A stretch of 64,000 bases of DNA from the sequence record OQ031495; one strand, 5' to 3'. A model generated the notes under the pieces. It was given only the letters and a program-made list of their open reading frames with translations. It was not told where the DNA came from and ran no database searches. Origin of the DNA: Escherichia phage MRostami-2023e. Shown here piece after piece: positions 32,058-49,628 of the stretch (position 1 is its first letter; each line of letters begins with the position of its first letter). Both the position numbers and the translations under genes were made by a program.

Positions 32058-32075
32058 ACTTCAAGTGAGGAAAAT

Positions 32076-32700: not shown

Positions 32701-32722
32701 GTGGAACCCCGACAAGGTATAT

Positions 32723-32752
32723 AGCCCCTTCCGAAAGGTTGGGGCTTTTTTG
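32723..32752 (+). terminator. Rho-independent terminator
   Basis: agcccc...ggggct stem followed by tttttt. Confidence 0.7.
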
Positions 32753-32760
32753 TATAAATA
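32753..32760 (+). promoter_or_regulatory. Late promoter TATAAATA upstream of the 32796 gene
   Basis: exact tataaata 36 nt upstream of ATG. Confidence 0.55.
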
Positions 32761-32795
32761 TAGTAAACAATAAACCCACTTTCTAAGGACCATCA

Positions 32796-33428: not shown

Positions 33429-33433
33429 AGAAT

Positions 33434-33452
33434 GGGGACTTCGGTCCCCTTT
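33434..33452 (+). terminator. Terminator-like hairpin (ggggac-ttcg-gtcccc, short U-run)
   Basis: GC stem-tetraloop directly after stop codon. Confidence 0.5.
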
Positions 33453-33480
33453 AGGGGGTCTATAACTTACTGAAAAAGTT

Positions 33481-33509
33481 GTTTACTTCTTCCCTAGATG
33501 TGTTACTAT
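33481..33509 (+). promoter_or_regulatory. Early promoter (gtttac N17 tactat)
   Basis: -35/-10 match to T4 early consensus; RBS catgaggagaatattATG shared with 38765 copy. Confidence 0.55.
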
Positions 33510-33537
33510 AGACCCATCAAAACATGAGGAGAATATT

Positions 33538-33798
33538 ATGAGTCTTTACACTGAACTGAATAAAAAATCTGAAGAATCTGCTGAAACTATTTTTAAAAAC
33601 GTGCAAAAGCGTATTTTAGAAAAGATGTATAACACTGCAGCTAAAGGTGAAAAATCTTGCCGGTTCCCGATGAGGTGTTCTTCTGATTTATGCGCAAATA
33701 CTATTGAATGGCTGGAAAGTGAAGGTCTTACGGTAGAGAAAAACCCGGCGATTTCTATTGACAGTGAATCATATATTAGTATTTCTTGGGATAAATCA
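33538..33798 (+). CDS. Hypothetical protein (3' end masked)
   Basis: ORF track; runs into N-masked run. Confidence 0.55.
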
Positions 33799-33827
33799 NN
33801 NNNNNNNNNNNNNNNNNNNNNNNNNNN
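33799..33827. other. N-masked run (29 nt)
   Basis: run of n. Confidence 1.
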
Positions 33828-33912
33828 AAATTTGAAAAATTAAAAATAAATGATGTACAAACGCCAAGGACGGTGATACTATAGACTTATCAACTACAGA
33901 GGAGTAAACAAA

Positions 33913-34077
33913 ATGACTACTTTAATTATTTGGTTCGATGAAAATGAAGAAACATACTGTGTGAATATTGGTGAAAGTCCAATGCCCGAATTTGAATCCT
34001 CAGATAAAAACTCTGTTGTATCTTGGGCTGAAGGTTATAAAGCAGCTAAAGGTGACGTTGAAATAATTTACATCTAA
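33913..34077 (+). CDS. Small hypothetical protein (54 aa)
   Basis: ATG with SD gaggag; promoter-like gtacaa...tactat upstream; below ORF-track size cut-off. Confidence 0.45.
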   Translation: MTTLIIWFDENEETYCVNIGESPMPEFESSDKNSVVSWAEGYKAAKGDVEIIYI

Positions 34078-34123
34078 GTAAGTTTATGTTATAGTAATCA
34101 CATCAAATCAAGAGGAAAACAAA

Positions 34124-34351
34124 ATGGCTAAAGTTAGTATTGATGTCGTTGATTATGAATACACAGAAGAAGTTATTCGCAACCGTCACCCTGAAGTTCG
34201 TATCGATTCAGTACAAGATTCCAAGTTCTGGACAACCGAGCTTAATCTGAGTGGTCCTTATGAAGCTGTTAAGAAGTTCATGGTTGAAGAATACTGCGAA
34301 GGCATGCACCCCGAAGACGCCAAGTTTTATGTCAATTTGATTAAAAAATAA
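34124..34351 (+). CDS. Hypothetical protein (75 aa)
   Basis: ORF track; SD gaggaaaacaaaATG. Confidence 0.55.
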   Translation: MAKVSIDVVDYEYTEEVIRNRHPEVRIDSVQDSKFWTTELNLSGPYEAVKKFMVEEYCEGMHPEDAKFYVNLIKK

Positions 34352-34380
34352 TTTACAAACTCTTGAGAGCAGAGTATAAT
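34352..34380 (+). promoter_or_regulatory. Early promoter (tttaca N17 tataat) with -10 in loop of gagagc/gctctc inverted repeat
   Basis: seen in sequence. Confidence 0.55.
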
Positions 34381-34421
34381 GCTCTCGTTGGATAATAAAC
34401 CACCAATTGAAAGGTAATAAT

Positions 34422-35015
34422 ATGAACACACTGAAGAAACTTGTTGAATTCATCCGCACTAAACTGGGTACTGCTATGGCTAAAAATCTGACTGTCGAAG
34501 AACAGTATAACGCAGCTGCAGATAAGTTGATTACCCAAATCAAAGAACTAAAAACGGCTTCTGTTAAATCTATTAATGAAGAAAAACGTATTCGCGAACT
34601 TGTTAATGAAAAGAACAAGCAAGCCGCTTCTAAGGAACGTGAAATTCGTAAGCTCCTGGCCGAAGGACAAGATGTTACCATGCATGCTAAGCTTGGTCTT
34701 CTGTATCGTCGAACTGCCGAACAACTTAATACAAAAGCTGACGGGTATGCCGCTATGCGAATTGAAATTGCTCGTAAGGTGGTTGAACTTGACGATGCTC
34801 GTCAGAACCTGGCAATCAAACTCGAATACATTCGCGAAACTCGAGCAGCTAATGCCCTTGGTATCTCTACGGCCGATGATGTAATTGAAATCGCTGCACT
34901 GACTAAGGTTGATATCGAAGACACTCTGACTCGTGTTGAAACGTTCAATGGCACTCCAGCTGGTGTCGAAACCACTTCTGCTGATGTACAAGAATATATT
35001 AACTCTTTGAAATAA
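34422..35015 (+). CDS. Coiled-coil protein (197 aa)
   Basis: ATG with SD aaagg; heptad-rich sequence. Confidence 0.6.
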
Positions 35016-35023
35016 AATAATAC

Positions 35024-35045
35024 GGAGGACTCCGGTCCTCCTTTT
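35024..35045 (+). terminator. Rho-independent terminator
   Basis: ggaggac-tccg-gtcctcc followed by tttt. Confidence 0.7.
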
Positions 35046-35064
35046 GGATAATAAAGGAGTTAAC

Positions 35065-35667
35065 ATGCGAAACCAAAATAATGATATTGACTCAATGTTC
35101 GAAGAGTTCCGAGATAAGGTAAATCCACCTACGTCTTTAGTTGATTCATTACGATATGTTGCAACTGGGCGTAAATGGTACTGGTCGTCTTCTTATGAGA
35201 CTACTGAGAAAACAGCTAGCCATAGCAGAAAATCTTTATTAGCCCCAGGTATTATGATTCATGATATCGGAGCTATTGCTAAACTAGTTGCAGACCATGA
35301 TATTAGATTCACCGATTTCGTTGCTCCTACATGGTCTGTTTGTTGTTTAAACACCGAATGGGAATATATCAGCGAACGCTCTAAAGATTATTATGGTTTT
35401 AGAGATAAGCTTTTAAGGTCTAACATGTTTTATATTGATACAGAAGTTCTGGTCAATAATAAAAAATACTACTTCACTTTAATCGTCGATTCTGAAACTA
35501 TGTATGAAGGCAAGCCTTTGCTTAAAAGAGTTGATGCTTTAAGTGCTATTGATGCGCTTTATGAAACTATGGTTGTTAGTCCTAATTTCACTAACAATTT
35601 AATCCTTGAGCAATTTATTATGGAATGTAGAGAATATGTCAAAGCCAACCCTATACATGCCAAGTAA
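35065..35667 (+). CDS. Hypothetical protein, C-terminal FIMECR motif (family member 1, soluble)
   Basis: ATG with SD aaaggag; ends ...EQFIMECREYVKANPIHAK. Confidence 0.6.
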   Translation: MRNQNNDIDSMFEEFRDKVNPPTSLVDSLRYVATGRKWYWSSSYETTEKTASHSRKSLLAPGIMIHDIGAIAKLVADHDIRFTDFVAPTWSVCCLNTEWEYISERSKDYYGFRDKLLRSNMFYIDTEVLVNNKKYYFTLIVDSETMYEGKPLLKRVDALSAIDALYETMVVSPNFTNNLILEQFIMECREYVKANPIHAK

Positions 35668-36031
35668 GCCCTGGGCATACGAATACAAACGTAAATTAAT
35701 CCCAAACGAAGTACTATTTGGCCCTATTTTAGCTTTAGCATTTTTAATCTTTATGATTATAGGAGCTGTTTTAGATTCCAATAAAGTTATATCGTCCGAT
35801 GCAGCGTTTTCATTAATGTTCGTCGCACCACTTATTGTACCGTTTTTATTAATGCCTATTAATTGGGTAGGATATTGGCACCAAGGCCGTCATCACAGAG
35901 CTCGAGTTCGTGAGTGGAAAGTTCAGTGCGCAAAAGCCCAAGCTCAGTATGATGAAGCTGTTAAAAAGTATGAATATGAAGAAGCTATGGAATTCGTTAA
36001 GGAGATAAGATGCAAAAGCCACAACTCTTAA
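35636..36031 (+). CDS. Two-TM membrane protein, C-terminal FVKEIR motif (family member 2)
   Basis: Two hydrophobic segments; ends ...AMEFVKEIRCKSHNS; overlaps upstream gene. Confidence 0.6.
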   Translation: MSKPTLYMPSKPWAYEYKRKLIPNEVLFGPILALAFLIFMIIGAVLDSNKVISSDAAFSLMFVAPLIVPFLLMPINWVGYWHQGRHHRARVREWKVQCAKAQAQYDEAVKKYEYEEAMEFVKEIRCKSHNS

Positions 36032-36369
36032 CCGTATGGCCTTCTCTTGGTGAGAACATTCTAATTTTTATTATGAGTATTGGCATGGGATTTGCCTTTG
36101 GATTAGTTGGATTTCTTATTGACGGCGTTGTGTTAGGATTTATAGGGAACACTGGTGGATTCACAGACCAATGGCAGGACTTACGGTATACCCAAGCCTT
36201 TGCATCCATCGCATCCTTTTGTACTGTAGTCTATTTTTACTACGATTTTATAAACCGTAACAAGAAAAATAAAAAGGTTTACGCTTCTCAAATGGTTAGT
36301 TATAATGAACTCCTAGCTAGACGTGAAAATGAAACAATCGAAAACTTTATTAAGGAATGTAGAAAATGA
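36010..36369 (+). CDS. Two-TM membrane protein, C-terminal FIKECR motif (family member 3)
   Basis: SD aaggag; ends ...IENFIKECRK. Confidence 0.65.
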   Translation: MQKPQLLTVWPSLGENILIFIMSIGMGFAFGLVGFLIDGVVLGFIGNTGGFTDQWQDLRYTQAFASIASFCTVVYFYYDFINRNKKNKKVYASQMVSYNELLARRENETIENFIKECRK

Positions 36370-36671
36370 GTAAGATTATTGAAATTAAAGTACCAGAGTT
36401 TAATGATGCCAAATCCGCTTCAGACGCAATTTATAAACTTCTGAATCAAGCTGAACGTATCGAAGAAGAAGCAACAAAGATCGCAGACCAATATGCCGTA
36501 TCATTTTCTGTAGGTGATTATGGTAGCGGTCGTACTTATTATCCTAAGGGTGAAATCGTATCCCAGTGGATGAAAGATGAAATTGAAAATAATGGTGGCG
36601 ATGTTAAGCGTGAAGGTAATGGTTACGTTATTACTGAAGGTGCTTGGGTTTCGTCTTCTGCGTTGTGCTAA
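36366..36671 (+). CDS. Hypothetical protein, paralog A (C-terminus GAWVSSSALC)
   Basis: ORF track; ATGA-coupled. Confidence 0.6.
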   Translation: MSKIIEIKVPEFNDAKSASDAIYKLLNQAERIEEEATKIADQYAVSFSVGDYGSGRTYYPKGEIVSQWMKDEIENNGGDVKREGNGYVITEGAWVSSSALC

Positions 36672-36680
36672 GGAATCATT

Positions 36681-36953
36681 ATGTCTAAAGAACAAACCGA
36701 ACTGGCTGAAGCTGTAGCAAAAATCTATGCAGCTATTGAGGCTGCCAAAGAAATTGCTGATAAACAAAACACAACATTCAACTTGTACCCAGCTTATGGT
36801 ATGGGTGGAACCTATCATTCACCCGGACAGCTTAAAGCCGATCTTGAACGTTGTACAAAAAACGGCTATGCTGAATGGGCCGACGTTTACCAATACGACT
36901 ACAACCTGAGCCTCGAAACTGGTGGTTGGGTTGCATCTTCTCACACTTGCTAA
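36681..36953 (+). CDS. Hypothetical protein, paralog B (C-terminus GGWVASSHTC)
   Basis: ORF track. Confidence 0.6.
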   Translation: MSKEQTELAEAVAKIYAAIEAAKEIADKQNTTFNLYPAYGMGGTYHSPGQLKADLERCTKNGYAEWADVYQYDYNLSLETGGWVASSHTC

Positions 36954-36962
36954 GGAAACCAT

Positions 36963-37160
36963 ATGTCTCGTGAATTGGATTGTGCTGTACGTACGGCAGT
37001 AGCTGCTCTGGAAAACCTGTTCCAAATTGCAACAGAAGAACGCGAAGAAGTTACATTATGGATTGAAGATAACGCAGGTCTGAATCTCCAGGACGCGATC
37101 TCATTATCCCACAATAGTATCACTGTTCAAGGCTGGGTATCATCTAGTTATTCTTGCTAA
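36963..37160 (+). CDS. Hypothetical protein, paralog C (C-terminus QGWVSSSYSC)
   Basis: ORF track. Confidence 0.55.
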   Translation: MSRELDCAVRTAVAALENLFQIATEEREEVTLWIEDNAGLNLQDAISLSHNSITVQGWVSSSYSC

Positions 37161-37164
37161 AACA

Positions 37165-37202
37165 GTTTACAACAAGATAGGGCTATGTTATAGTAGTCCT
37201 AT
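37165..37202 (+). promoter_or_regulatory. Early promoter cassette (gtttac ... tatagt) with near-perfect inverted repeat atagggcta/tagtcctat bracketing the -10
   Basis: seen in sequence. Confidence 0.6.
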
Positions 37203-37222
37203 CAAATTAAATGGAGTTCACA

Positions 37223-37462
37223 ATGATTTATTACGAAAGTATCGGAACCGAAGTAGTTGCTAAAACTATTACTCGTGAAAAGTTTGCAAAGATATTCGAT
37301 ATGCGTTATAAAAAATCTGAACACAAAGGCATCCGATTCGAAGATGCGCACTGTACAATTTGCCCTTATAATGAAGACATAAACGGTACAATCGTTCCAT
37401 TGGTAGAGGCTTCACATGTCGACCTCTGGGATGAATATGATATCGCATGTCGTGAAATTTAA
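37223..37462 (+). CDS. Hypothetical protein (79 aa)
   Basis: ATG with SD ggag. Confidence 0.55.
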   Translation: MIYYESIGTEVVAKTITREKFAKIFDMRYKKSEHKGIRFEDAHCTICPYNEDINGTIVPLVEASHVDLWDEYDIACREI

Positions 37463-37490
37463 GTTAATGAATTAATCCGAGGAAAATATT

Positions 37491-38447
37491 ATGATGTTAG
37501 TTATTGGTTCTCGTGCACTTCACTATCACGGTCTTATTGATTCTAGCGCTATCAAAAATAGTGATTGGGACTTTATTGCGGACCAATGTTCTTGGAATGC
37601 ATTCAAAAATCAAATGATGGGTGTATATGTCCACCAAGATAACCCTGATGTCCAAGTTTTCAAATGCTTCCATAATGGACGCGAAACTCATTTTGAAGCA
37701 TATATTGTTCCGGCAATCACTAACGTTCGCGAACTAGTCGGTGAACTCACTCCTGAAGATTTCACGTCTTCTTATGACCTTTTAAAATACGCCAAGAAAA
37801 ATTTGACTAAAGACCGTTTGAACGGGTTTTACTGGGCAACTCCCGAGATATGTCTTGCAATTAAGATGTCTCATCGTTTCAAGAAAAATAATCCATTCTT
37901 TTTAAAGACTATGAACCATATTCAGTATCTTCGTGGTAAAGGTGTTACACTGAACGATGAACTTACTGAAATTATGCTGAAACGCCAGAAAGAAACCTTG
38001 AACTATGCTCACCCAGTTCTTGACACTTCTAAAAGTGCGTTCTTTAAAGATGACATCTATACATATGACCATGATACTATTCACGAAGCCATTGCGTTAA
38101 CAGGCCGCCCAGCGTATACATTTTATATGAAAGACGGTTCTGAAGTCATGACCTCACGTGAGAAGTTCGAATCGTTACCAGAAATGGTCAAATTGGCCGG
38201 TGTATATGAAGAATCATGTGTACTAGCATTAGAACGTTCTCAGATTCCTAATGACTTTAAAATTAACCCTGAAGCCAGTTTCATGATGGCATTAGAAAAA
38301 GTCTGCACAAGCATCACCTCCGGTTGGTTCCGTGAATACGCATACGAGAACTACAGCAAAGTTGTAAGTATGTATCATAAGCTCGGCAAAAATGATTACA
38401 TTAAACGGTTTAAAGAAAATTTTCATATGGTGAAACCTTTCAAATAA
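37491..38447 (+). CDS. Hypothetical protein (318 aa) with N-terminal G-S...D-x-D signature suggestive of a pol-beta-type nucleotidyltransferase fold
   Basis: VIGSRALHYHGLIDSSAIKNSDWDF; tentative motif-level call only. Confidence 0.5.
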   Translation: MMLVIGSRALHYHGLIDSSAIKNSDWDFIADQCSWNAFKNQMMGVYVHQDNPDVQVFKCFHNGRETHFEAYIVPAITNVRELVGELTPEDFTSSYDLLKYAKKNLTKDRLNGFYWATPEICLAIKMSHRFKKNNPFFLKTMNHIQYLRGKGVTLNDELTEIMLKRQKETLNYAHPVLDTSKSAFFKDDIYTYDHDTIHEAIALTGRPAYTFYMKDGSEVMTSREKFESLPEMVKLAGVYEESCVLALERSQIPNDFKINPEASFMMALEKVCTSITSGWFREYAYENYSKVVSMYHKLGKNDYIKRFKENFHMVKPFK

Positions 38448-38466
38448 CTTCACAAAACTGTTTACA

Positions 38467-38728
38467 NNNNNNNNNNNNNNNNNNNNNNNNNNNNNNNNNN
38501 NNNNNNNNNNNNNNNNNNNNNNNNNNNNNNNNNNNNNNNNNNNNNNNNNNNNNNNNNNNNNNNNNNNNNNNNNNNNNNNNNNNNNNNNNNNNNNNNNNNN
38601 NNNNNNNNNNNNNNNNNNNNNNNNNNNNNNNNNNNNNNNNNNNNNNNNNNNNNNNNNNNNNNNNNNNNNNNNNNNNNNNNNNNNNNNNNNNNNNNNNNNN
38701 NNNNNNNNNNNNNNNNNNNNNNNNNNNN
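38467..38728. other. N-masked run (262 nt), flanked on both sides by gtttaca promoter elements
   Basis: run of n. Confidence 1.
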
Positions 38729-38766
38729 GTTTACACAATTATAGGACTATGTTATAGTAGTCCTAT
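38729..38766 (+). promoter_or_regulatory. Early promoter cassette with perfect 9-bp inverted repeat ataggacta/tagtcctat around the -10
   Basis: gtttac ... gttatagt; RBS catgaggagaatattATG. Confidence 0.6.
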
Positions 38767-38786
38767 TAAAACATGAGGAGAATATT

Positions 38787-39092
38787 ATGAAATTAACAGA
38801 AACCAATCGAATTGGTCTTTTAACAATACTTGCATCACCTTTTTACGCAACTCTTTCTGTTGCGGTATTACAAAAGGCTTACAGTATGGATGGTGTTCCT
38901 GGTTGTATATTTTTATCACCATTTTTGCTATTCGTTGGAGCTTTGTTATTATATGCCACGTCTGGTTTCGACAATAATGTCTGGGTCAATTATAAACGTA
39001 AATTGTCTGAAGAAGAACACGCAGAAGCTCGTAAAAAAGCTATTGAATCTACCAATCTAGAAAATTTCATTAAAGAATGTCGAGGAAAATAA
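38787..39092 (+). CDS. Two-TM membrane protein, C-terminal FIKECR motif (family member 4)
   Basis: ends ...NLENFIKECRGK. Confidence 0.65.
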   Translation: MKLTETNRIGLLTILASPFYATLSVAVLQKAYSMDGVPGCIFLSPFLLFVGALLLYATSGFDNNVWVNYKRKLSEEEHAEARKKAIESTNLENFIKECRGK

Positions 39093-39093
39093 T

Positions 39094-39780
39094 ATGAATA
39101 GTTCTAAAGTGTTTAATAGTCAAGCTCGTGCAGTAGGTGGTTTTGCTCATGCGATTAAAAACGACCAGATTAAAAACGAGCCTATGTTCTTCAACTGTAG
39201 TTTAGAATTTGCTTATAATAACGGCGGTCCTATTACTCGCAGCTTCATCATGAACTTGCCAGATGATTGGAACACCGACCAGGTTGTATTTGATTCACGA
39301 GTCCACATGCTGATGCCTGGTTGGTACCCTGCTATCCCAGGTTATCACCATGACGATGTACCACGCCCGGATATTCCGGTTGGTCAACACTTTATTACTG
39401 CAGGACAACCTGACTATGACAATCCTCGCTATTTGTCTGAACATATTCTTGGTCTTGTTAACGCTGATGTGTGTCCTACTCATTTTGCAACAGGAACTGC
39501 AGAGTTCAGTCAGATTCCTGATGGCGAACTTATCTATCGTCAGTGGCACAAAGAAGTCCTCGAAAAAATTGAAAAAGGCGAACTAGAGAAATGGGAAGCT
39601 CCAGATCGTACTCTTCTTCAGTTTGATTGGCAAACATGGCACACTGGTTCTCGTGCAATTAGTAACGGATGGCGTTGGTTCGGACGTGTATCTCGTAATA
39701 CAGACCGAGTTAAAAAGATTACCAATGAAATTCGTGTCAATGCCCAAGTTTATCTGGAATTCCCTATGGAAGGCTGGTAA
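39094..39780 (+). CDS. Hypothetical protein (228 aa)
   Basis: ORF track. Confidence 0.6.
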   Translation: MNSSKVFNSQARAVGGFAHAIKNDQIKNEPMFFNCSLEFAYNNGGPITRSFIMNLPDDWNTDQVVFDSRVHMLMPGWYPAIPGYHHDDVPRPDIPVGQHFITAGQPDYDNPRYLSEHILGLVNADVCPTHFATGTAEFSQIPDGELIYRQWHKEVLEKIEKGELEKWEAPDRTLLQFDWQTWHTGSRAISNGWRWFGRVSRNTDRVKKITNEIRVNAQVYLEFPMEGW

Positions 39781-40271
39781 TGATTAACAAAACATATTGG
39801 TCTAATATAGACGATGGCAACGAAGGTATTTCATACTATTCAGTAGATTGGTCAGGATGTCCATCCTACTTAGTGAAGCATATTTGCCAAGAATTTAAAA
39901 TCGACCAGCCAGCAGGTATTATCGTGAACAGATACATTAATGGATATCAACCTATCGATGAAGTAATACGAACAACTCAAGCTGAGCTTGAAAAGTTTTT
40001 CAATAAGTGCCAATGGATAACAGGATGGATTATATTTGTACCGTCGGTATGGTTTTTTAGTACTAAGGTGAGTTCTTTCGGTTTTGTTGATATTATTGCT
40101 ATCTTATTAGCATCTACTATCGTAAGTATTATTGGTGGCATCATTGGCGGCGGTACCGCCGCCATCATTATTAATCTTGTTAAAAGTAGTTTACAGGAAC
40201 GTAAAGACAGGATAAAGGCCAAGAATAATGAAGTTGAACGTTTTATTACCGAATGCAGGAATTTGAGATGA
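39780..40271 (+). CDS. Two-TM membrane protein, C-terminal FITECR motif (family member 5)
   Basis: ends ...VERFITECRNLR. Confidence 0.65.
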   Translation: MINKTYWSNIDDGNEGISYYSVDWSGCPSYLVKHICQEFKIDQPAGIIVNRYINGYQPIDEVIRTTQAELEKFFNKCQWITGWIIFVPSVWFFSTKVSSFGFVDIIAILLASTIVSIIGGIIGGGTAAIIINLVKSSLQERKDRIKAKNNEVERFITECRNLR

Positions 40272-40504
40272 GTATAGCAATTTACATTAAATCAGAATCA
40301 TGTGATAGTTATCTATACACATACGATAAAGATGTGTCAGAAGAAAAAATCAAAGACGACCTTAATATGGACCTTGATATGTTCTGTCCTATTGCAGATT
40401 ACAAACTTGCGGTCTCTAATAGTGAAAGTCCATCTAAAGAAACGCGCATTGAAGAATTTATGTCCGAATTAATGGCCAAATCATGGGACCGAGATGATGA
40501 GTAA
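40268..40504 (+). CDS. Hypothetical acidic protein (78 aa)
   Basis: ATG overlapping previous stop region. Confidence 0.5.
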   Translation: MSIAIYIKSESCDSYLYTYDKDVSEEKIKDDLNMDLDMFCPIADYKLAVSNSESPSKETRIEEFMSELMAKSWDRDDE

Positions 40505-40952
40505 GAAAAATAAAGTGAAAGAACTATCAGCCGGTATTATTTTCCTTACCGAAGATAAAGAATTATTCATGGGGCGTGTAACTGGTTCTCGTCCTAAAGG
40601 TTCTTTAGCTCATCGGTGGGATATTCCTAAAGGACGTGTCGAGCCCGGTGAATCTCCTATCGAAGCCGCTATTCGCGAATGCGAAGAAGAAACTGGGTTT
40701 ACACAATATGACCCTGCCTTCCTGAAAGACCTAGGTGAACATCATTACTCAGACAATAAGAATATTCATCTGTTCCTATATACCATCCCTGTAGAGCACG
40801 AGCAATTCAGAAACAGTGTTTGTAATTCCTATCATACGTTCCCAGACGGACGTCAGATTCCTGAATTTGATGCATTCGCTTTAATTAAACCTTCTCAATG
40901 GGAATATGTAATGGGCAAATCATTATATAAGGTGCTCACTACCCTCCTATAA
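40494..40952 (+). CDS. nudE: Nudix hydrolase NudE (T4 e.1)
   Basis: Nudix box GRVEPGESPIEAAIRECEEETGF; directly upstream of lysozyme gene. Confidence 0.85.
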   Translation: MMSKKNKVKELSAGIIFLTEDKELFMGRVTGSRPKGSLAHRWDIPKGRVEPGESPIEAAIRECEEETGFTQYDPAFLKDLGEHHYSDNKNIHLFLYTIPVEHEQFRNSVCNSYHTFPDGRQIPEFDAFALIKPSQWEYVMGKSLYKVLTTLL

Positions 40953-40959
40953 GTAATAA

Positions 40960-40985
40960 ATACCTCCTATAAACGTGGGAGGTAT
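40960..40985 (+). promoter_or_regulatory. Hairpin sequestering the lysozyme SD (atacctcc / ggaggtat), late-promoter-like tataaacg in loop
   Basis: 8-bp inverted repeat; ggagg SD in right arm, ATG at 40987. Confidence 0.55.
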
Positions 40986-40986
40986 T

Positions 40987-41475
40987 ATGAATATATTTGA
41001 AATGCTTCGTAATGACGAAGGTCTTAGACTGACTTTATACAAAGACACTGAAGGCTTTTGGACGATTGGCATAGGCCATTTAGTAACAAAGAACCCGTCT
41101 TTAGCCGTAGCTAAAGCTGAACTTGACAGAATGATCGGACGTAAATGCAACGGTACAATTACCCTTGATGAGGCCGAAAAGCTATTTAATGAAGACGTTG
41201 ATAAAGCCGTTCGCGGAATCTTGGGTAATGCTAAACTTAAACCGGTATATGATTCTTTAGATGCGGTTCGTCGTTGTGCATTGGTCAATATGGTCTTCCA
41301 AATGGGTGTAGCAGGCGTCGCCGGTTTTACTAATTCTCTTCGTATGCTTCAACAGAAACGTTGGGATGAAGCGGCAGTAAATCTAGCCCAATCTAAATGG
41401 TATCGTCAGACACCTAATCGCGCGAAACGCGTAATCTCAACATTTAAAACAGGAACTTGGAAAGCGTATATATGA
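40987..41475 (+). CDS. e: Endolysin (T4 lysozyme, gene e)
   Basis: [32 protein letters not shown]... matches T4 lysozyme as recalled; 162 aa. Confidence 0.95.
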
Positions 41476-41753
41476 AAACATATAGTGAATTTTTATCAGA
41501 ATCTATTCTTAACGAAGCTACTGACACATTTGCAACTAAGCTAGGTGCAGCTTTGGTTGAAGCCGAAAGTCTACTAGCACGTATTTCTGAACTTGCTAGT
41601 AAGATAGATACTCGCAAATTTGAACGTACTAGCGATATCGCTAAGCTTGAAGCCTTGTTACGTATGTGCAATAAACCGGAAGAAATCGCTAAGAACGGCT
41701 CGCTGATGAAACAACGTCTTGAAAAATATATTTCAGGCGCTTCAGAAAAATAG
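41472..41753 (+). CDS. Internal-protein-like gene with capsid-targeting sequence ([10 protein letters not shown])
   Basis: ATGA overlap with e stop; CTS N-terminus; position of T4 ipIII. Confidence 0.65.
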
Positions 41754-41811
41754 TGTTTACTTCCTCCAAGGGTTTTGATACTATACATTCATCAACTACT
41801 TGGAGGAAATT

Positions 41812-42348
41812 ATGACTCGTATCAATTTAACACTTGTTTCTGAACTGACCGACCAACATCTTATGGCTGAGTATCGTGAATTACCACGCGTATTTGGTGC
41901 AGTCCGTAAACATGTTCAAAACGGTAAACGTGTAAAGGATTTTAAAATCTCTCCAACATTTATCTTAGGCACAGGTCACGTAACATTCTTTTACGACAAA
42001 CTTGAATTTTTACGTTTAAGACAAATCGAGCTAATCGCTGAATGTTTGAAACGTGGTTTCAAAATCAAGGACACGACAGTCCAGGATATTTCCGACATCC
42101 CTGCCGAATTTCGTAATAATTATGTCCCGTCCGAAGCGTCCATTGCGATAAGTCAAGCACGCTTAGATGAAAAAATTGCTCAACGTCCGACTTGGTACAA
42201 ATACTATGGTAAATCAATTTACCAAGGAAAAATGAAAATGTATCAAGAATTTATCATTGAAGCAGATGCCAAAGGTCCTAAAGTAGATGTTGACGATATT
42301 GGATACGATTTTAACAACTTCGGAATTATTTCTGGCGGTAAAGCTTAA
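41812..42348 (+). CDS. denV: Endonuclease V (pyrimidine-dimer DNA glycosylase) with C-terminal in-frame extension into a CTS-bearing mini-ORF
   Basis: First ~136 aa match T4 DenV as recalled; ORF lacks a stop at the expected position and continues ...[17 protein letters not shown]... to 42348. Confidence 0.85.
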
Positions 42349-42351
42349 ATT

Positions 42352-42381
42352 GTTTACGCTTAAGTATTAATATGGTATAAT
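42352..42381 (+). promoter_or_regulatory. Early promoter (gtttac N18 tataat)
   Basis: seen in sequence. Confidence 0.6.
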
Positions 42382-42411
42382 TACTCTATCAAAACAAACA
42401 AGGAAACAAAA

Positions 42412-42729
42412 ATGAAAACATATAAAGAATTTATCGCCGAATCTGCTGCAGGACAACGTGTAGAAGGTGGTTATATCTGGATTGAACAAGTTGAGCCGCC
42501 AAGTCGCACTTCTACAGGTAAATGGAAAATCACTGTTGATGGTCCTGGTGGTAAACGTAGGACTCTTAAAGAAATTAATGGGTACTATGAAGAAGCTCTT
42601 TCTGACGCGGGTACTTATATGATGCAAATCATGATTAAAAACCCAGAAAATCGTTTTGCGGCTAGAGTTTTCCGCCGTATTGGAAATAAGCTTTATGATG
42701 CATATTCTAAAAACTTCCCTAAAGAATAA
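42412..42729 (+). CDS. Internal-protein-like gene with capsid-targeting sequence (MKTYKEFIAE)
   Basis: 105 aa; CTS N-terminus; own promoter. Confidence 0.65.
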   Translation: MKTYKEFIAESAAGQRVEGGYIWIEQVEPPSRTSTGKWKITVDGPGGKRRTLKEINGYYEEALSDAGTYMMQIMIKNPENRFAARVFRRIGNKLYDAYSKNFPKE

Positions 42730-42745
42730 AAATTAAAGGAAACAT

Positions 42746-42777
42746 ATGAAAACATATCAAGAATTTATTACTGAAGC
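42746..42777 (+). CDS. Start of another CTS gene (MKTYQEFITE), remainder N-masked
   Basis: 10 readable codons then N-masked run. Confidence 0.5.
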
Positions 42778-43217
42778 NNNNNNNNNNNNNNNNNNNNNNN
42801 NNNNNNNNNNNNNNNNNNNNNNNNNNNNNNNNNNNNNNNNNNNNNNNNNNNNNNNNNNNNNNNNNNNNNNNNNNNNNNNNNNNNNNNNNNNNNNNNNNNN
42901 NNNNNNNNNNNNNNNNNNNNNNNNNNNNNNNNNNNNNNNNNNNNNNNNNNNNNNNNNNNNNNNNNNNNNNNNNNNNNNNNNNNNNNNNNNNNNNNNNNNN
43001 NNNNNNNNNNNNNNNNNNNNNNNNNNNNNNNNNNNNNNNNNNNNNNNNNNNNNNNNNNNNNNNNNNNNNNNNNNNNNNNNNNNNNNNNNNNNNNNNNNNN
43101 NNNNNNNNNNNNNNNNNNNNNNNNNNNNNNNNNNNNNNNNNNNNNNNNNNNNNNNNNNNNNNNNNNNNNNNNNNNNNNNNNNNNNNNNNNNNNNNNNNNN
43201 NNNNNNNNNNNNNNNNN
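42778..43217. other. N-masked run (440 nt)
   Basis: run of n. Confidence 1.
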
Positions 43218-43381
43218 TATTTACATTCAAATAACATGGGAACAACCTGGACCTCATGATTCTATGAGGGATTCCCGCCAACCTGTAATAAGGTCGAGCC
43301 CAAGTGCGGTAATGGGTTTACATAGCGAGTCGAAGGACCTAACATGTGCCACGGAATGGCCCAAACCTTAAGAGAAATAAT
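43218..43381 (+). ncRNA. Non-coding, noticeably GC-richer segment with several short hairpins; candidate structured RNA (5' part masked)
   Basis: No credible ORF; cctcatg-attct-atgagg hairpin; composition unlike flanking AT-rich intergenic DNA. Confidence 0.3.
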
Positions 43382-43921
43382 ATGAGAACATTTTTAACTG
43401 GACCTTATCTATCCCTGATGAATGCTTTTACACACCATTCTGATGCTAGAGTAGAAGAAATTTGTAAGAACGGATATGTCCCACCATTTGAAGACGTACT
43501 CAAGCAGTACTGTACACTTCGTTTAGACGGCGGCCGACAATCAGGTAAATCAATTGCTGTGACTAACTTTGCTGCTAATTGGCTGTATGATGGTGGAACG
43601 GTTATTGTTCTTTCTAATACTTCAGCTTATGCTAAAATTTCTGCTGGCAACATTGAAAAAGAATTTTCTCGTTATTCTAGCGACGATATTCGATTCCGTT
43701 TATTTACTGATTCTGTTCGTAGTTTTATTGGCAATGAAGGTTCTAAATTCCGTGGATTAACGCTTTCTCGTATTCTGTATATAATTGACGAGCCTATTAA
43801 AGCTCCTGATATGGATAAGATTTACAATGTCCATATTAAAACAGTACAGTACTGCTGTAAAAGCAAATATTGCATCGGCGGTAATGCTCGTCCTCAATTT
43901 TTTGTGATTGGAATGCAATGA
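43382..43921 (+). CDS. Small P-loop NTPase-like protein (180 aa)
   Basis: Walker A GGRQSGKS, Walker-B-like LYIIDEP. Confidence 0.55.
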   Translation: MRTFLTGPYLSLMNAFTHHSDARVEEICKNGYVPPFEDVLKQYCTLRLDGGRQSGKSIAVTNFAANWLYDGGTVIVLSNTSAYAKISAGNIEKEFSRYSSDDIRFRLFTDSVRSFIGNEGSKFRGLTLSRILYIIDEPIKAPDMDKIYNVHIKTVQYCCKSKYCIGGNARPQFFVIGMQ

Positions 43922-44226
43922 TGACCACTATTGAAGTTTTTGAATATTGTTATAACAGTCCAGTATGCAATAAAAGGGCCCTTGTAGAAAATTACGAGAT
44001 TTACCATTTTAAACCTAAACGATATCGTTTGACTAAAGGTCCGTTCGCAGGGCAGCAGGTTCTTTGTACTGCTCCTAATGCACGACTGATGACTAGTATT
44101 CCACATTTCAAAATGGAATTTATTGATGGGCCATTTAAGGGATTAATCACTCAAAGTTTAATGGCGTTTAATTCCGTCCCATTTTTGATTAAAGAAAAAA
44201 CTTGGATAAATTTATTTTCTAATTGA
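43918..44226 (+). CDS. Hypothetical protein (102 aa)
   Basis: ORF track; ATGA-coupled. Confidence 0.55.
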   Translation: MMTTIEVFEYCYNSPVCNKRALVENYEIYHFKPKRYRLTKGPFAGQQVLCTAPNARLMTSIPHFKMEFIDGPFKGLITQSLMAFNSVPFLIKEKTWINLFSN

Positions 44227-44232
44227 GGTTAT

Positions 44233-44595
44233 ATGAAAGCATATCAAATTCTTGAAGGCACACACAAAGGCACTATTTATTTTGAAGACGGTACTCAAGC
44301 CCGGATTATTGTCTCTAAGACTTTTAAAGAAGACGCTATTGTAGACCCGGAAATTTTCTACGGTTTGCATGCCCGTGAAATTGAAATTGAACATCAACCT
44401 AAAGTTAAAATTGAAGGTGGTCAACATCTGAACGTTAACGTTCTGCGTCGTGAAACTCTGGAAGATGCAGTTAAGCATCCAGAAAAATATCCGCAGTTGA
44501 CCATCCGTGTATCCGGTTATGCAGTTCGCTTTAACTCTCTGACTCCGGAACAGCAGCGCGACGTTATCGCTCGTACCTTTACTGAGAGTCTATAA
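44233..44595 (+). CDS. Autonomous glycyl-radical cofactor (GrcA/YfiD-like; T4 Y06I-type)
   Basis: C-terminal half ...[60 protein letters not shown] matches E. coli GrcA as recalled, including RVSGY glycyl-radical motif. Confidence 0.9.
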
Positions 44596-44819
44596 TGGCT
44601 AAATTGATTATAGAAGGGTCTGAAGATGTTTTAAAATGTTTTGCCGCCTGGTTTAGTTGCTCAGGCGAGCAATCATTCATTGAAGCATTTAGAATGGGTG
44701 ATATTACTGGAAACTATCCGGCAACTGATATCACTGTACGTGGATATGGTATTAATGAGCCTATCCAATTGGTCGAATATGACCTTGCCACCGATGAGGA
44801 AATTCCTTATGTCGATTGA
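44595..44819 (+). CDS. Hypothetical protein (74 aa)
   Basis: ORF track. Confidence 0.5.
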   Translation: MAKLIIEGSEDVLKCFAAWFSCSGEQSFIEAFRMGDITGNYPATDITVRGYGINEPIQLVEYDLATDEEIPYVD

Positions 44820-45075
44820 AGATATTAAAGGCTACAAGCCACATACCGACGATAAAATCGGTAAAGTGAACGCTATTAAAGATGCAGAAGTCCGTCTTGG
44901 ATTGTTGTTTGATGCTCTGATTGAAGAAGCATATATCTTGAAAGAAAATGAAACAGAGCAACAAACCAAAGAAGATATGGATGCAGTACAGGCTCTTAAG
45001 TATGCTAAGCAACATCTAAAAGAAGCCAGCATGTGGGCCTGTCGTGCAGTATTTCGACCTGAGGAAAAATACTAA
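44809..45075 (+). CDS. Hypothetical protein (88 aa)
   Basis: Internal ATG of ORF 44641..45075 chosen to avoid overlap with upstream gene. Confidence 0.45.
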   Translation: MSIEDIKGYKPHTDDKIGKVNAIKDAEVRLGLLFDALIEEAYILKENETEQQTKEDMDAVQALKYAKQHLKEASMWACRAVFRPEEKY

Positions 45076-45080
45076 TGGCT

Positions 45081-45282
45081 NNNNNNNNNNNNNNNNNNNN
45101 NNNNNNNNNNNNNNNNNNNNNNNNNNNNNNNNNNNNNNNNNNNNNNNNNNNNNNNNNNNNNNNNNNNNNNNNNNNNNNNNNNNNNNNNNNNNNNNNNNNN
45201 NNNNNNNNNNNNNNNNNNNNNNNNNNNNNNNNNNNNNNNNNNNNNNNNNNNNNNNNNNNNNNNNNNNNNNNNNNNNNNNNNN
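45081..45282. other. N-masked run (202 nt); an ATG at 45075 opens a masked gene
   Basis: run of n. Confidence 1.
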
Positions 45283-45293
45283 ATCAAAGAGTA

Positions 45294-45344
45294 GTTTACT
45301 TCTCCTCTAGTTGTGTTACTATAGACCTGTCAACTAGAGGAGAA
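45294..45344 (+). promoter_or_regulatory. Early promoter cassette with perfect 14-bp inverted repeat (ttctcctctagttg / caactagaggagaa) spanning the -10 and the SD
   Basis: gtttac N17 tactat; right arm contains gaggag SD of downstream gene. Confidence 0.6.
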
Positions 45345-45350
45345 ATCAAA

Positions 45351-45809
45351 ATGACTATCAATTCAGACGTTTTTATCCGCCGTAATAAACTCCGTCGAAT
45401 CTTTGAAACGGAGTTCCGCAAAATAAATGCCAGTATAAAAGATGCTGCAAAGTCTCTTGGACTACCAGGCTTTCATATCAAGTATTCTCAACATCTCTTA
45501 GATCGTGCCATCCAGAGAGAAATAGATGAGAATTACGTTTTTGAATTATTTCGTAAAGTAAAAAATCATGTTAAAGAAGTTGCAGAATTTTTATCAATGC
45601 CGGCACGTCCAGATGTTGATGAAGATTTTGTCGAAGGCGTCGAATATCGCCCAGGCCGTTTAGAAATAACTGATGGAAATCTTTGGTTAGGACTTACAGT
45701 CTGTCGCGAAAATCCAGCATTCAAAATGAAGACTCTTCAATGCAGAATGGCTATTATTAACAGTAAACGACTACCAGGAAAAGCTTCTAAAGCCGTGATT
45801 AAAATCTAG
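45351..45809 (+). CDS. regB: RegB-like endoribonuclease (tentative)
   Basis: 152 aa (T4 RegB 153 aa); E19, H48, R52 at positions I recall as catalytic in T4 RegB; unverified. Confidence 0.5.
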   Translation: MTINSDVFIRRNKLRRIFETEFRKINASIKDAAKSLGLPGFHIKYSQHLLDRAIQREIDENYVFELFRKVKNHVKEVAEFLSMPARPDVDEDFVEGVEYRPGRLEITDGNLWLGLTVCRENPAFKMKTLQCRMAIINSKRLPGKASKAVIKI

Positions 45810-45817
45810 AGGTAAAC

Positions 45818-46360
45818 ATGAGAAAAGCACTACTCGCTGGTCTATTTGCTCTTTCATTATCAGCACATAGCTCCGAGCATACTTTTAGTAATGTCCAACT
45901 CGATAACTTGAATTATGCTTATCAGTTTGGGGAACAGTTTTCTAAGGATGGAAAATTTAAAACGCATGAAAATATGCATAAGAAAGGACTTGGATACATA
46001 ATGGCCGCAATACTATGGCAAGAATCATCTGCCGGTATTAATCTTAAAGATAAGAAAGGTCACCATGCGTATGGAATGTTCCAAAATTATCTACCAACAA
46101 TGAGGGCAAGAATTAACCAGCTTGGTTACAATATGACTGATGCCCAAATTAAGAAAATGCTATCTAAGCGGTCTAATTCAGCCAGATGGGCTTATATAGA
46201 ATTTTCTTATTGGTTAAATATACATAACGGGGATATAAGAAAAGCTATATCCTCATATAATGCGGGATGGAAGACAAGTGCTGGAAGTAAATATGCTTCT
46301 GAAGTCCTAGAAAAGGCTAATTACCTTAAATCAAATAAACTACTGGAAATAAAAGAATGA
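45818..46360 (+). CDS. Secreted protein with lytic-transglycosylase-like motif (ES...YGMFQ)
   Basis: Signal peptide MRKALLAGLFALSLSAHS; WQESSAG...AYGMFQ. Confidence 0.5.
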   Translation: MRKALLAGLFALSLSAHSSEHTFSNVQLDNLNYAYQFGEQFSKDGKFKTHENMHKKGLGYIMAAILWQESSAGINLKDKKGHHAYGMFQNYLPTMRARINQLGYNMTDAQIKKMLSKRSNSARWAYIEFSYWLNIHNGDIRKAISSYNAGWKTSAGSKYASEVLEKANYLKSNKLLEIKE

Positions 46361-46704
46361 CCAAAATGTTGGCTTTAATAGTTGGCTTGGTTTCATTTAA
46401 CGCTCTTGCTAATACTACATATACTGATGTAACGGAGTATACAAACAGAACGGCGTCTGATTATTGTGGTAAAAGTCAAGAGTGTAAAGTAGATTTTTCA
46501 CAAAAATTGTTATATGCGTATAAAGACGGAGAAAAAGATGGGGCGTCTAGTAGGTTCAAGGCGTCTACCTTAATTAAAAGATACTATAAAAAATGGCAAA
46601 TATTAGAATGCTCGGTGGCGGAACCTAAAGATAAGGCAGCATGCAATTCTATGGTGGACCGTCTAGTTGACTCTTATAATAGAGGACTTGCAGCAAGTGA
46701 TTAA
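46357..46704 (+). CDS. Secreted Cys-containing protein (115 aa)
   Basis: Signal peptide MTKMLALIVGLVSFNALA. Confidence 0.55.
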   Translation: MTKMLALIVGLVSFNALANTTYTDVTEYTNRTASDYCGKSQECKVDFSQKLLYAYKDGEKDGASSRFKASTLIKRYYKKWQILECSVAEPKDKAACNSMVDRLVDSYNRGLAASD

Positions 46705-47154
46705 AAACTATATCAAGGGCGATATTGTCGCCCTGTTTTCTAAAGGTAATAATATTGCTCATGGGTGTAATTGTTTTCATACAATGGGCGCCGGTGTAGC
46801 AGGCCAATTAGCAAAGGCTTATCCAAAAATTTTAGAAGCCGATAAACTTCAAACTGCATATGGAGACGAGTCTAAACTCGGGTCTTATTCGGTTTATGAA
46901 AAATATTTTAAGACCCATAAAGCTTATTGCTTTAATCTTTATACGCAGTTTGAGCCTGGACCTAATTTTGAGTACTCTGCTTTAATGAATTGTATAATAG
47001 AATTAAATGAATTCGGAAAGAATAAGATAACAAAGCCTGTAATTTATATGCCAAGAATTGGTGCCGGTATTGGTGGTGGAAACTGGGATGTCATCGAAGA
47101 GATTTTAGATACGTATTCCACTAAACTAGAAATTGTGATTGTTGATTGGGAACC
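46667..47154 (+). CDS. Macro-domain protein (3' end masked; start codon uncertain, possibly TTG/GTG)
   Basis: NNIAHGCNCFHTMGAGVAGQL and RIGAGIGGGNW resemble macro-domain ADP-ribose-binding loops. Confidence 0.6.
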
Positions 47155-47416
47155 NNNNNNNNNNNNNNNNNNNNNNNNNNNNNNNNNNNNNNNNNNNNNN
47201 NNNNNNNNNNNNNNNNNNNNNNNNNNNNNNNNNNNNNNNNNNNNNNNNNNNNNNNNNNNNNNNNNNNNNNNNNNNNNNNNNNNNNNNNNNNNNNNNNNNN
47301 NNNNNNNNNNNNNNNNNNNNNNNNNNNNNNNNNNNNNNNNNNNNNNNNNNNNNNNNNNNNNNNNNNNNNNNNNNNNNNNNNNNNNNNNNNNNNNNNNNNN
47401 NNNNNNNNNNNNNNNN
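47155..47416. other. N-masked run (262 nt)
   Basis: run of n. Confidence 1.
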
Positions 47417-47560
47417 ATGGACTGTTTTTTTTACTTTATGTAACGATGAAATGATATGTGATTTTGATTATTGGTGTTATTGCTATTGATACAATAAAGG
47501 ATGTACAAATCATACAGGTGAAGGTTTCTATTCCGGGTTTCAACCGTATCCAGACTTTGT

Positions 47561-47568
47561 NNNNNNNN
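47561..47568. other. N-masked run (8 nt)
   Basis: run of n. Confidence 1.
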
Positions 47569-47578
47569 GTGAACCTAA

Positions 47579-47761
47579 ATGAAATTAACTAAAGAAGAGA
47601 AAGCTAAACTGTTCGAACTTATCCATGACCTATTGGACGAGCAAGCAGCCACCAATGCGTACGATGAATATGCTCCTTTAACAGATGAAGAATATCAAGC
47701 ATTGATGGAATCATTTGACAGGAAAGAACAAGAACTCATTGACTACGTGAATTCACTATAA
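47579..47761 (+). CDS. Hypothetical acidic protein (60 aa)
   Basis: ORF track. Confidence 0.5.
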   Translation: MKLTKEEKAKLFELIHDLLDEQAATNAYDEYAPLTDEEYQALMESFDRKEQELIDYVNSL

Positions 47762-47770
47762 GGGACTCTT

Positions 47771-48352
47771 ATGGCTAGTTTAATTTTTACATATGCCGCT
47801 ATGAATGCTGGTAAGTCTGCTTCATTACTTACTGCCGCACATAACTATAAAGAACGTGGCATGGGTGTATTAGTTCTTAAACCGGCTATTGATACTCGCG
47901 ATTCAAAAGGTGAAATAGTCTCTCGTATTGGTATTCGTCAGGATGCCAATATAATTACAAAAGACATGGATATCTTTGAATTCTATAAATGGGCTGCAGC
48001 ACAAAAGGATATTCACTGTGTATTTGTTGACGAAGCTCAGTTCTTAACTACTGAAAAGGTGTATCAACTTAGTCGTATTGTTGACGTATACAATGTGCCG
48101 GTAATGGCATATGGACTACGAACAGATTTTAAAGGTAATCTATTTGAAGGTTCTCAAGCATTAATGGCTATTGCCGATAAGCTTGTTGAACTTAAAGGTG
48201 TCTGTCATTGTGGTAAAAAGGCCACAATGGTAGCTAGAGTCACGGAAGACGGACTTCCAATTACAGATGGCAGTCAAATTGAAATTGGTGATACCGATAG
48301 ATATGTGTCATTATGCCGGAAGCATTGGAATGATTTGACAGGGTTGTTATAA
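47771..48352 (+). CDS. tk: Thymidine kinase
   Basis: 193 aa (T4 Tk 193 aa); P-loop AMNAGKSASLL. Confidence 0.9.
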   Translation: MASLIFTYAAMNAGKSASLLTAAHNYKERGMGVLVLKPAIDTRDSKGEIVSRIGIRQDANIITKDMDIFEFYKWAAAQKDIHCVFVDEAQFLTTEKVYQLSRIVDVYNVPVMAYGLRTDFKGNLFEGSQALMAIADKLVELKGVCHCGKKATMVARVTEDGLPITDGSQIEIGDTDRYVSLCRKHWNDLTGLL

Positions 48353-49288: not shown

Positions 49289-49628
49289 NNNNNNNNNNNN
49301 NNNNNNNNNNNNNNNNNNNNNNNNNNNNNNNNNNNNNNNNNNNNNNNNNNNNNNNNNNNNNNNNNNNNNNNNNNNNNNNNNNNNNNNNNNNNNNNNNNNN
49401 NNNNNNNNNNNNNNNNNNNNNNNNNNNNNNNNNNNNNNNNNNNNNNNNNNNNNNNNNNNNNNNNNNNNNNNNNNNNNNNNNNNNNNNNNNNNNNNNNNNN
49501 NNNNNNNNNNNNNNNNNNNNNNNNNNNNNNNNNNNNNNNNNNNNNNNNNNNNNNNNNNNNNNNNNNNNNNNNNNNNNNNNNNNNNNNNNNNNNNNNNNNN
49601 NNNNNNNNNNNNNNNNNNNNNNNNNNNN
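49289..49628. other. N-masked run (340 nt)
   Basis: run of n. Confidence 1.

Follow-up and report, generated by a model that had tools for sequence, protein, structure and literature searches.

A 64,000-nucleotide stretch of DNA from Escherichia phage MRostami-2023e (record OQ031495; called here the window) has, on its plus strand at 41812-42348, a single open reading frame (ORF) that starts as denV, the gene for the repair enzyme endonuclease V (EndoV), and then continues past the usual end of this enzyme into what looks like a short gene for an internal protein of the phage head, called here the mini-gene. What has happened at the junction of the two? An earlier note, made from the sequence of the window, had offered several possibilities: a stop codon lost in a real fusion, a base-call error imitating such a loss, or a short internal-protein gene translated separately in the same frame. 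We compared the junction with related phage genomes, with metagenomic and bacterial contigs, and with the protein families to which the two halves belong.

Loss of the denV stop codon

The ORF runs from ATG at 41812 to TAA at 42346-42348 and encodes 178 amino acids (aa). Residues 1-137 can be aligned over their whole length with T4 DenV (endonuclease V, a pyrimidine dimer DNA glycosylase/AP lyase; PDB structures 2END and 1VAS; PF03013). The match to 2END covers the whole domain (E = 1.8e-81), and the family profiles PF03013 (E = 4e-14, 53 bits at a cutoff of 23) and phrog_1183 (E = 3.7e-62) are matched as well. All columns that are invariant in an alignment of 26 EndoV sequences are kept, including T2, R3, E23, R26, W128 and Y129; more broadly, Thr2, Glu23, Arg3/22/26 and the C-terminal WYKYY segment are all present, in invariant or near-invariant columns. 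We take Thr2 to be the catalytic α-amino nucleophile after Met removal, and assume that the roles of Glu23, Arg3/22/26 and WYKYY are likewise those of the T4 enzyme. As judged from these alignments, the catalytic domain is untouched in the fused protein.

An EndoV of a T-even phage is expected to stop shortly past ...YGK(A/S)IY, at 137-139 aa, and the T-even homologues are 137-142 aa long (138 aa in T4, 137 aa in RB69). The window protein has no stop there. Codon 138 is instead an in-frame CAA, which is followed by GGA AAA and then by the 38 codons of the mini-gene, so that the enzyme gains 41 C-terminal residues from the neighbouring gene. An AlphaFold2 model of the 178-aa protein is confident for residues 1-138, whereas pLDDT falls below 50 in residues 139-178, where a helix is modelled along the segment that resembles a capsid targeting sequence (CTS). 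An active, tailed EndoV is plausible, because the invariant residues are kept, the domain is modelled confidently, and tailed homologues exist in nature.

The latter are EndoV homologues of 171-181 aa with acidic C-terminal tails of 30-45 aa, unrelated in sequence to the tail in the window. These tails (proteins P0043, P0049, P0054, P0058 and P0095 of our collection) end in ...IKEEMNNY or similar, and the contig that encodes P0058, of ~350 kb, would fit a jumbo phage.

In related phages the place of CAA is taken by a stop codon. The ancestral junction, as seen in UGJNEcP1 and RB69, reads TAA GGA AAA ATG, with the mini-gene starting 6 nt past the denV stop, and the mini-gene shares the reading frame of denV in nine out of nine TAA-bearing relatives in which the junction was read. 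A 61-mer with TAA is found exactly in 119 phage records. In contrast, a 37-mer centred on CAA has an exact match in one of 50,697 phage records, that of Escherichia phage vB_EQ1. The CAA pattern had no matches in metagenome contigs, where a scan allowing any codon at this place retrieved one contig, with TAA; the three contigs matched in the IMG/VR scan also all have TAA, and a junction scan of bacterial-genome contigs returned no matches. In a protein-database search no cluster representative spanned the tail, and the fusions sit inside clusters represented by 137-aa proteins.

The genome of vB_EQ1 (167,790 bp) is 100.0% identical to the window over positions 30000-42440, i.e., along ~12 kb, while the next-best genome is 97.0% identical; the perfect match stops at position 12441 of the query. 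Within a panel of 11 genomes aligned at denV, two changes are private to the window and vB_EQ1, a synonymous change in an Arg codon at 42019 and the stop-to-Gln change at 42223. The fusion coding sequence (CDS) of vB_EQ1 (XPQ48255.1, 226 aa) has the identical CAA codon and flanks, but its downstream partner is the full-length 86-aa form of the internal protein and not the 38-aa form. The exact 178-aa protein is on record from an NCBI contig of 169,098 bp, which by its length is not vB_EQ1. By this sequence comparison the stop was lost once and the loss passed on within a single lineage, because the vB_EQ1 flanks are fully identical and the private substitutions are common to both genomes.

A second fusion of the same two genes arose independently in phage vB_EcoM_G53 (QBO65262.1, 226 aa), again with the full-length 86-aa partner. 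Here, the frames were joined by a 1-base deletion in GGTAAATC, on the background of an A6 spacer allele that is common and is also found in APCEc01. The deletion changes the last residues of EndoV to ...YYGNQFTKEK, after which MKMYQ... begins (880-905 in our extract of this locus, L008). The fusion CDSs of both vB_EQ1 and G53 are labelled only as endonuclease V or glycosylase, with the fusion unremarked.

Most of what the earlier note had said of this half of the ORF agrees with these comparisons: the read-through frame ends in exactly the C-terminus that it quoted, the first ~136 residues are those of T4 EndoV, the T4 protein does end in ...YGKAIYA-stop as the note stated, and a stop has been lost, which was one of its alternatives. 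Its placement of that stop at 42226-42231 is corrected to 42223-42225. A base-call error in a single assembly, which the note had left as an alternative, is unlikely on this evidence, because a second deposited genome, vB_EQ1, has the same C; a wider form of this explanation is retained among the rivals (see below).

The mini-gene and its capsid targeting sequence

The gene downstream of denV in RB69 is RB69p125, originally RB69ORF125c, with the RefSeq name "internal head protein", and separate CDSs for the mini-gene are annotated in UGJNEcP1 and RB69. The 38-aa product matches phrog_35655 over its whole length (E = 2e-30, residues 1-38 of 38), and the 86-aa form of the same gene matches phrog_2667, "internal head protein" (E = 1e-21). 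Searches with tblastn found the RB69ORF125c family in 216 phage records from at least three genera. Full-length members have 86-87 aa, and members at 64-72% identity occur in Gaprivervirus SP18 and in the Gelderlandviruses STP4-a, STML-198 and Melville. In SP18 and STP4-a, the loci of which were read, the family gene does not adjoin denV; among the loci compared, the tight junction of the two genes is seen only in RB69-like (Mosigvirus-type) genomes. We found no proteomic data on the RB69ORF125c family in the literature.

The mini-gene of the window is a short allele of this family. It differs from the vB_EQ1 form by an in-frame deletion of 144 bp (48 codons) with CCTAAA microhomology at its ends. 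A 45-mer covering the deletion junction occurs in 10 records, which come from 8 phages, namely PhAPEC2, phiEC1, 172859UKE1, UGJNEcP1, UGJNEcP2, JS09, pEK20 and TU01; in PhAPEC2, JS09 and UGJNEcP1 the short allele occurs together with the exact TAA 61-mer.

The first ten residues of the mini-gene product agree with the CTS of T4 internal proteins IPII and IPIII, MKTYQEFIAE followed by A, at positions 4, 7, 8 and 10: Y4, F7, I8 and E10 are kept, and Ala follows. In T4, the first 10 residues of IPIII are enough for targeting to the head; by mutagenesis, positions 4 and 7 are important for targeting, and positions 8 and 10 for processing, and the prohead protease gp21 cleaves after Glu in L/I-x-E (PMC9026906, a review). 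The match in the window is beyond chance, because, when all six frames of the 64 kb were scanned for the CTS motif, exactly four matches came up, all of them at plus-strand ORF starts of one gene array within 41472-42746. The predicted strength of the Shine-Dalgarno sequence (SD) of the mini-gene equals that of the SDs of the neighbouring internal-protein genes. Thus the SD, the ATG and the CTS that the earlier note saw in the extension are all present, and its short same-frame internal-protein gene exists in relatives as a separate gene with its own SD and ATG. The comparison with denV-ipII junctions that it proposed holds in part: RB69-like phages have the junction described above, but in T4 ipII lies upstream of denV, and there is no such junction.

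The mini-gene has the same attributes as the CTS-bearing internal proteins of T-even phages (T4 IPI, IPII and IPIII; RB69p125), i.e., a CTS, an L/I-x-E site followed by Ala, an SD and ATG of its own, and a place in the e-denV internal-protein array, where three other CTS genes flank it. It differs from them in that its start lies inside the denV frame, so that the CTS would be internal in the main predicted product. A protein started at the ATG at 42232 would have the CTS at its N-terminus, whereas in the read-through product the CTS occupies residues 141-150. After removal of the CTS, the mature peptide would have 28 aa, 2.9 kDa and pI 4.3. It would thus be acidic, unlike T4 IPII and IPIII, which are basic. 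T4 Ip1-3 are inhibitors of GmrSD (PMC12373910).

The internal-protein array and its plasticity

By its sequence, the window belongs to a T-even phage of RB69 type, and the nearest records are classed as Mosigvirus. The order of genes on the plus strand is nudE (40494-40952), the lysozyme gene e (to 41475), a 93-aa CTS gene, denV, and three further CTS genes (starts at 42232, 42412 and 42746). As in T4, denV is found in the company of gene e and internal-protein genes. The coordinates of the features discussed here are collected in Table 1.

Table 1. Features at and around the denV junction in the window (plus strand throughout)
Feature	Position	Strand	Evidence or remark
CTS-bearing internal head protein gene, 93 aa	41472..41753	+	phrog_3499, E 5e-46; motif scan
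Putative early-type promoter-like site before denV (GTTTAC, 18 nt, TACTAT)	41755..41784	+	Reading of the sequence
denV SD, GGAGG	41802..41806	+	Sequence; predicted anti-SD duplex -9.3 kcal/mol
EndoV-coding part of denV (pyrimidine dimer DNA glycosylase), codons 1-137	41812..42222	+	Profiles, alignment, model
Small predicted hairpin GGUAAA-UCAA-UUUACC, closing pair with the mutated base	42208..42223	+	ViennaRNA
CAA (Gln) in place of denV stop TAA; T-to-C at 42223	42223..42225	+	Aligned with UGJNEcP1, vB_EQ1
SD of the mini-gene, AAGGA	42224..42228	+	3 nt before ATG; anti-SD duplex -5.4 (CAA) vs -6.0 kcal/mol (UAA)
Mini internal-protein gene, 38 aa + stop, short allele of RB69ORF125c family	42232..42348	+	PHROG matches, annotation in relatives
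CTS and predicted gp21 cut (IIE, then A)	42232..42261	+	Cut predicted after Glu codon 42259-42261
Junction of 144-bp in-frame deletion (48 codons), CCTAAA microhomology	42277..42282	+	Alignment with vB_EQ1
Strong sigma-70/T4-early-type promoter, predicted (GTTTAC, 17 nt, TG-n-TATAAT)	42352..42381	+	Promoter scan, 10/12 with TG
Next CTS-bearing gene, 105 aa, MKTYKEFIAE	42412..42729	+	phrog_3966
Start of fourth CTS-bearing gene, MKTYQEFITEA...	42746..42777	+	Cut by masked N-run 42778-43217

The order of the array varies among T-even phages. In T4 it is e - ipIII - ipII - denV - vs.8, in RB69 it is e - IP - denV - ORF125c - IP - IP - vs.8 (IP, internal-protein gene), and SP18 and STP4-a are arranged otherwise again. 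Even the closely related array of vB_EQ1, with identical sequence on either side, differs from that of the window twice, by the 144-bp indel and by a complete swap of the next cassette. The breakpoint of the swap is at ~42440, right at the end of the CTS of the gene at 42412 (~2325 in the vB_EQ1 extract, L001); in the swapped part the window has the 105-aa gene and another CTS gene, vB_EQ1 has one 192-aa IPIII-like gene, and the two genomes rejoin before vs.8. The only DNA that the four CTS genes of the window have in common is their SD-plus-CTS modules, which fits the published view of the CTS as the sole constant feature of these diverse and fast-evolving injected proteins (PMC3012670, PMC9026906, PMC12373910).

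Damage to one or the other of the two genes is also on record. Phages vB_EcoM_G8 and vB_EcoM_G4498 have an out-of-frame deletion of ~310 bp in denV, which joins codon 3 to ~codon 106 (ATGACCCGT to CCGAAGCG) with CCCGT microhomology and leaves the mini-gene intact. The resulting denV pseudogene is unannotated (~630-650 in extracts L009 and L010), and a copy in IMG/VR (L004) is in the same state. In vB_EcoM_Lutter, the RB69ORF125c homologue is split by a frameshift into two overlapping CDSs (...NGYFFLRW*; 1679-1934 in extract L007), and both pieces are annotated as "internal head protein".

Two promoter-like sites flank the fused ORF. The one before denV is under the threshold of the consensus scanner, although the homologous 30 nt are annotated as "promoter" in Lutter; the second, much better predicted, sits just past the fused ORF and before the next internal-protein gene, and its homologue in Lutter is likewise annotated as "promoter". 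A scan for the canonical late promoter, TATAAATA, found none from 32761 to 48347, with only a variant of it, AATAAATA, upstream of gene e. In that place, at 40955-40986, AATAAATA is followed by a potential hairpin, CCTCC-TATAAACGT-GGGAGG, that would sequester the SD of e; this resembles the early/late translational control of T4 gene e. The stop of gene e overlaps the start of the 93-aa CTS gene as ATGA (41472-41475), an arrangement that suggests translational coupling of the two.

The small hairpin that ends at the mutated base is predicted to be 2.3 kcal/mol more stable in the C allele than in the U allele, but it probably follows from the G-K-S-I-Y codons, and a regulatory RNA mechanism at the junction was rejected, as the predicted accessibility of the SD and AUG is the same for both alleles. 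The region also contains a direct repeat of 77 nt (42193-42269 and 42373-42449, 70% identity). The 3' half of the repeat is the common SD-plus-CTS module, and in the 5' half the WYKYY codons of denV (TGGTACAAATACT) align with the -10 box, of the TG-extended type, of the promoter that follows (TGGTATAATTACT). We took the resemblance of the 5' halves for chance in AT-rich DNA, because the denV segment is constrained by the WYKYY motif and has no -35 partner.

Several other features of the window were noticed. Two neighbouring tRNA genes are found at 31903-32054 (Rfam, 59 and 71 bits). A 120-aa ORF at 44233-44595 corresponds in position to genes that are annotated in relatives as autonomous glycyl radical cofactor GrcA (T4 vs.6). 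The spacer between the array and vs.8 (43218-43345) has a GC content of up to 50% and is conserved in vB_EQ1 (2876-3046 in L001); a structured RNA in this spacer was rejected, with no Rfam match and a folding z-score of -0.05, like that of shuffled sequence. Runs of N, 13 in number and 8-440 bases long, are spread over 9804-61911 (for example, 42778-43217, 38467-38728 and 49289-49628); they resemble deliberate masks rather than assembly gaps, and the first of these examples takes away nearly all of the body of the fourth CTS gene.

Possible products of the fused frame, and their significance

We consider it quite probable that the window records a real, lineage-specific stop loss in denV of an RB69-like phage, near-neutral or mildly deleterious in its effect. 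A T-to-C transition would have turned TAA into CAA, and this single base change would suffice for fusion because the mini-gene starts 6 nt downstream in the same frame; TAA can change by a single base in nine ways, and seven of these yield a sense codon and, hence, a fusion. Ribosomes translating denV would run on through GGA AAA into the mini-gene, up to its stop at 42348, and the main product would be a 20.5-kDa EndoV with a flexible tail of 41 aa, composed of QGK, the 10-aa CTS and the acidic peptide of 28 aa. The free 38-aa pre-protein may still arise by internal initiation at 42232, where the SD and AUG of the mini-gene are kept, because the SD is of nearly the same strength, and the predicted accessibility is equal, in the two alleles; such initiation would now compete with elongating denV ribosomes. 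The change would be hosted by a locus in a hyperplastic internal-protein array that appears tolerant of damage and reshuffling, given the G53 fusion, the denV deletion in G8 and G4498, the frameshift in Lutter, and the 144-bp deletion in 8 phages.

Several points weigh against this account. The products of the fused ORF, and their effect on fitness, we infer from the sequence. The window and vB_EQ1 may be sister isolates or derive from the same stock, and vB_EQ1 may then not be an independent confirmation. Neutrality is assumed from the rarity of the fusion and from decay of the locus in relatives, with one event to judge by. Finally, the tail could impair EndoV activity, since WYKYY (128-132 of 137), a segment that we take to be important for dimer-specific binding, is 5-9 residues before the junction.

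If the base at 42223 were in truth a T, denV would be of normal length, 137 aa, and the mini-gene would be translated separately. The CAA codon is absent from at least 119 relatives, and it did not turn up in the scans of metagenome, IMG/VR and bacterial-genome contigs. The only other carrier, vB_EQ1, is 100.0% identical on the flanks and could have its stock, its laboratory or a systematic error in common with the window. Hypermodified cytosines can bias nanopore base-calling, and the base before 42223 is a C. Such cytosines occur in RB69-type phages (PMC6024577). Nevertheless, we regard a sequencing or base-calling artefact as unlikely. The same C is found in two records that differ in length and structure (the 144-bp indel and the swapped cassette), other ordinary private substitutions of this lineage lie nearby, no homopolymer indels separate the window from its relatives in the denV region, and the lineage is ~3% diverged from the nearest other relative, so that real private differences are expected by the hundred. 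A loss of function by fusion, where the tail impairs EndoV and read-through suppresses the separate small internal protein, so that one or both genes are mainly inactivated, on the way to losing a pair that the phage could do without, appears the least probable explanation of all. It would fit the closeness of the junction to WYKYY, the already truncated state of the 38-aa allele with its mature peptide of only 28 aa, the pseudogenised denV of G8 and G4498, and the frameshifted mini-gene of Lutter. Yet the EndoV domain has no other damaging change, the short allele persists with its ORF unbroken in 8 other phages and has a PHROG of its own, and natural EndoV homologues with tails exist.

The fusion could, on the other hand, be adaptive. 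The internal CTS would then take EndoV into the prohead core, gp21 would cut after IIE(150), and the freed 150-aa EndoV would be injected with the DNA and would cut pyrimidine dimers in UV-damaged phage genomes ahead of all phage gene expression. The residues for targeting and cleavage are indeed intact (Y4, F7, I8, E10 and Ala), the model shows a flexible tail in which a helix runs along the CTS, a 10-residue CTS is enough for the packaging of foreign enzymes, and Alt and gp21 itself have C-terminal propeptides that gp21 cleaves (PMC9026906). In engineered T4 fusions an enzyme is joined to a CTS and a gp21 site (Hong & Black 1993; Mullaney & Black 1996; reviewed in PMC9026906 and PMC3012670). 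In all tested fusions, however, the CTS is N-terminal to the cargo (PMC9026906). The engineered proteins have CTS or IPIII first, and cleavage frees the cargo, whereas the order in the window is EndoV, QGK, CTS and peptide, and after cleavage the CTS would stay on EndoV as a C-terminal tag. It is suggestive that denV became joined to an internal-protein gene on two occasions, by one mutation in the window/vB_EQ1 lineage and by another in G53; but such recurrence is expected from mutation alone, given the proportion of fusing changes in TAA and the 6-nt in-frame spacer. The fusions are rare and have not spread, with three genomes found (window, vB_EQ1 and G53), and the outright deletion of denV in G8 and G4498 suggests weak selection on this gene. 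EndoV itself contains two further L/I-x-E motifs, IAE75-77 and LDE118-120, where gp21 could also cut. In the Lutter annotation the promoter upstream of denV has the 30-nt form that is also given to the sigma-70-type site at 42352-42381, and the timing of expression may not match head assembly. For these reasons packaging of the fused enzyme seems improbable, even more so than an artefact.

Both halves of the ORF are ordinary members of known families, and their join is a minor variation, though a new one, which two GenBank annotations already contain without remarking on it; in the literature searched, we found no paper linking RB69 with internal proteins and denV. For annotation, the finding means that the 178-aa and 226-aa "endonuclease V" entries each consist of denV and the internal-protein gene next to it, run together through the loss of a stop, and that the mini-gene vanishes from the annotations of the fused entries. 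Were the fusion packaged after all, a reading not favoured by the evidence at hand, it would be the first case in nature of a repair enzyme delivered via a CTS, the CTS would be seen to work from an internal position, which would be useful for engineering of T4 protein delivery, and the G53 fusion would be a second instance of EndoV pre-loading. In either case the locus is a natural test case for an internal CTS. The RB69-type junction, TAA GGA AAA ATG in one frame, sits one mutation away from fusion, and stop loss adds another type of variation to the internal-protein array of T-even phages, beside the fusion in a second phage, microhomology deletion, swaps of CTS cassettes and denV decay.

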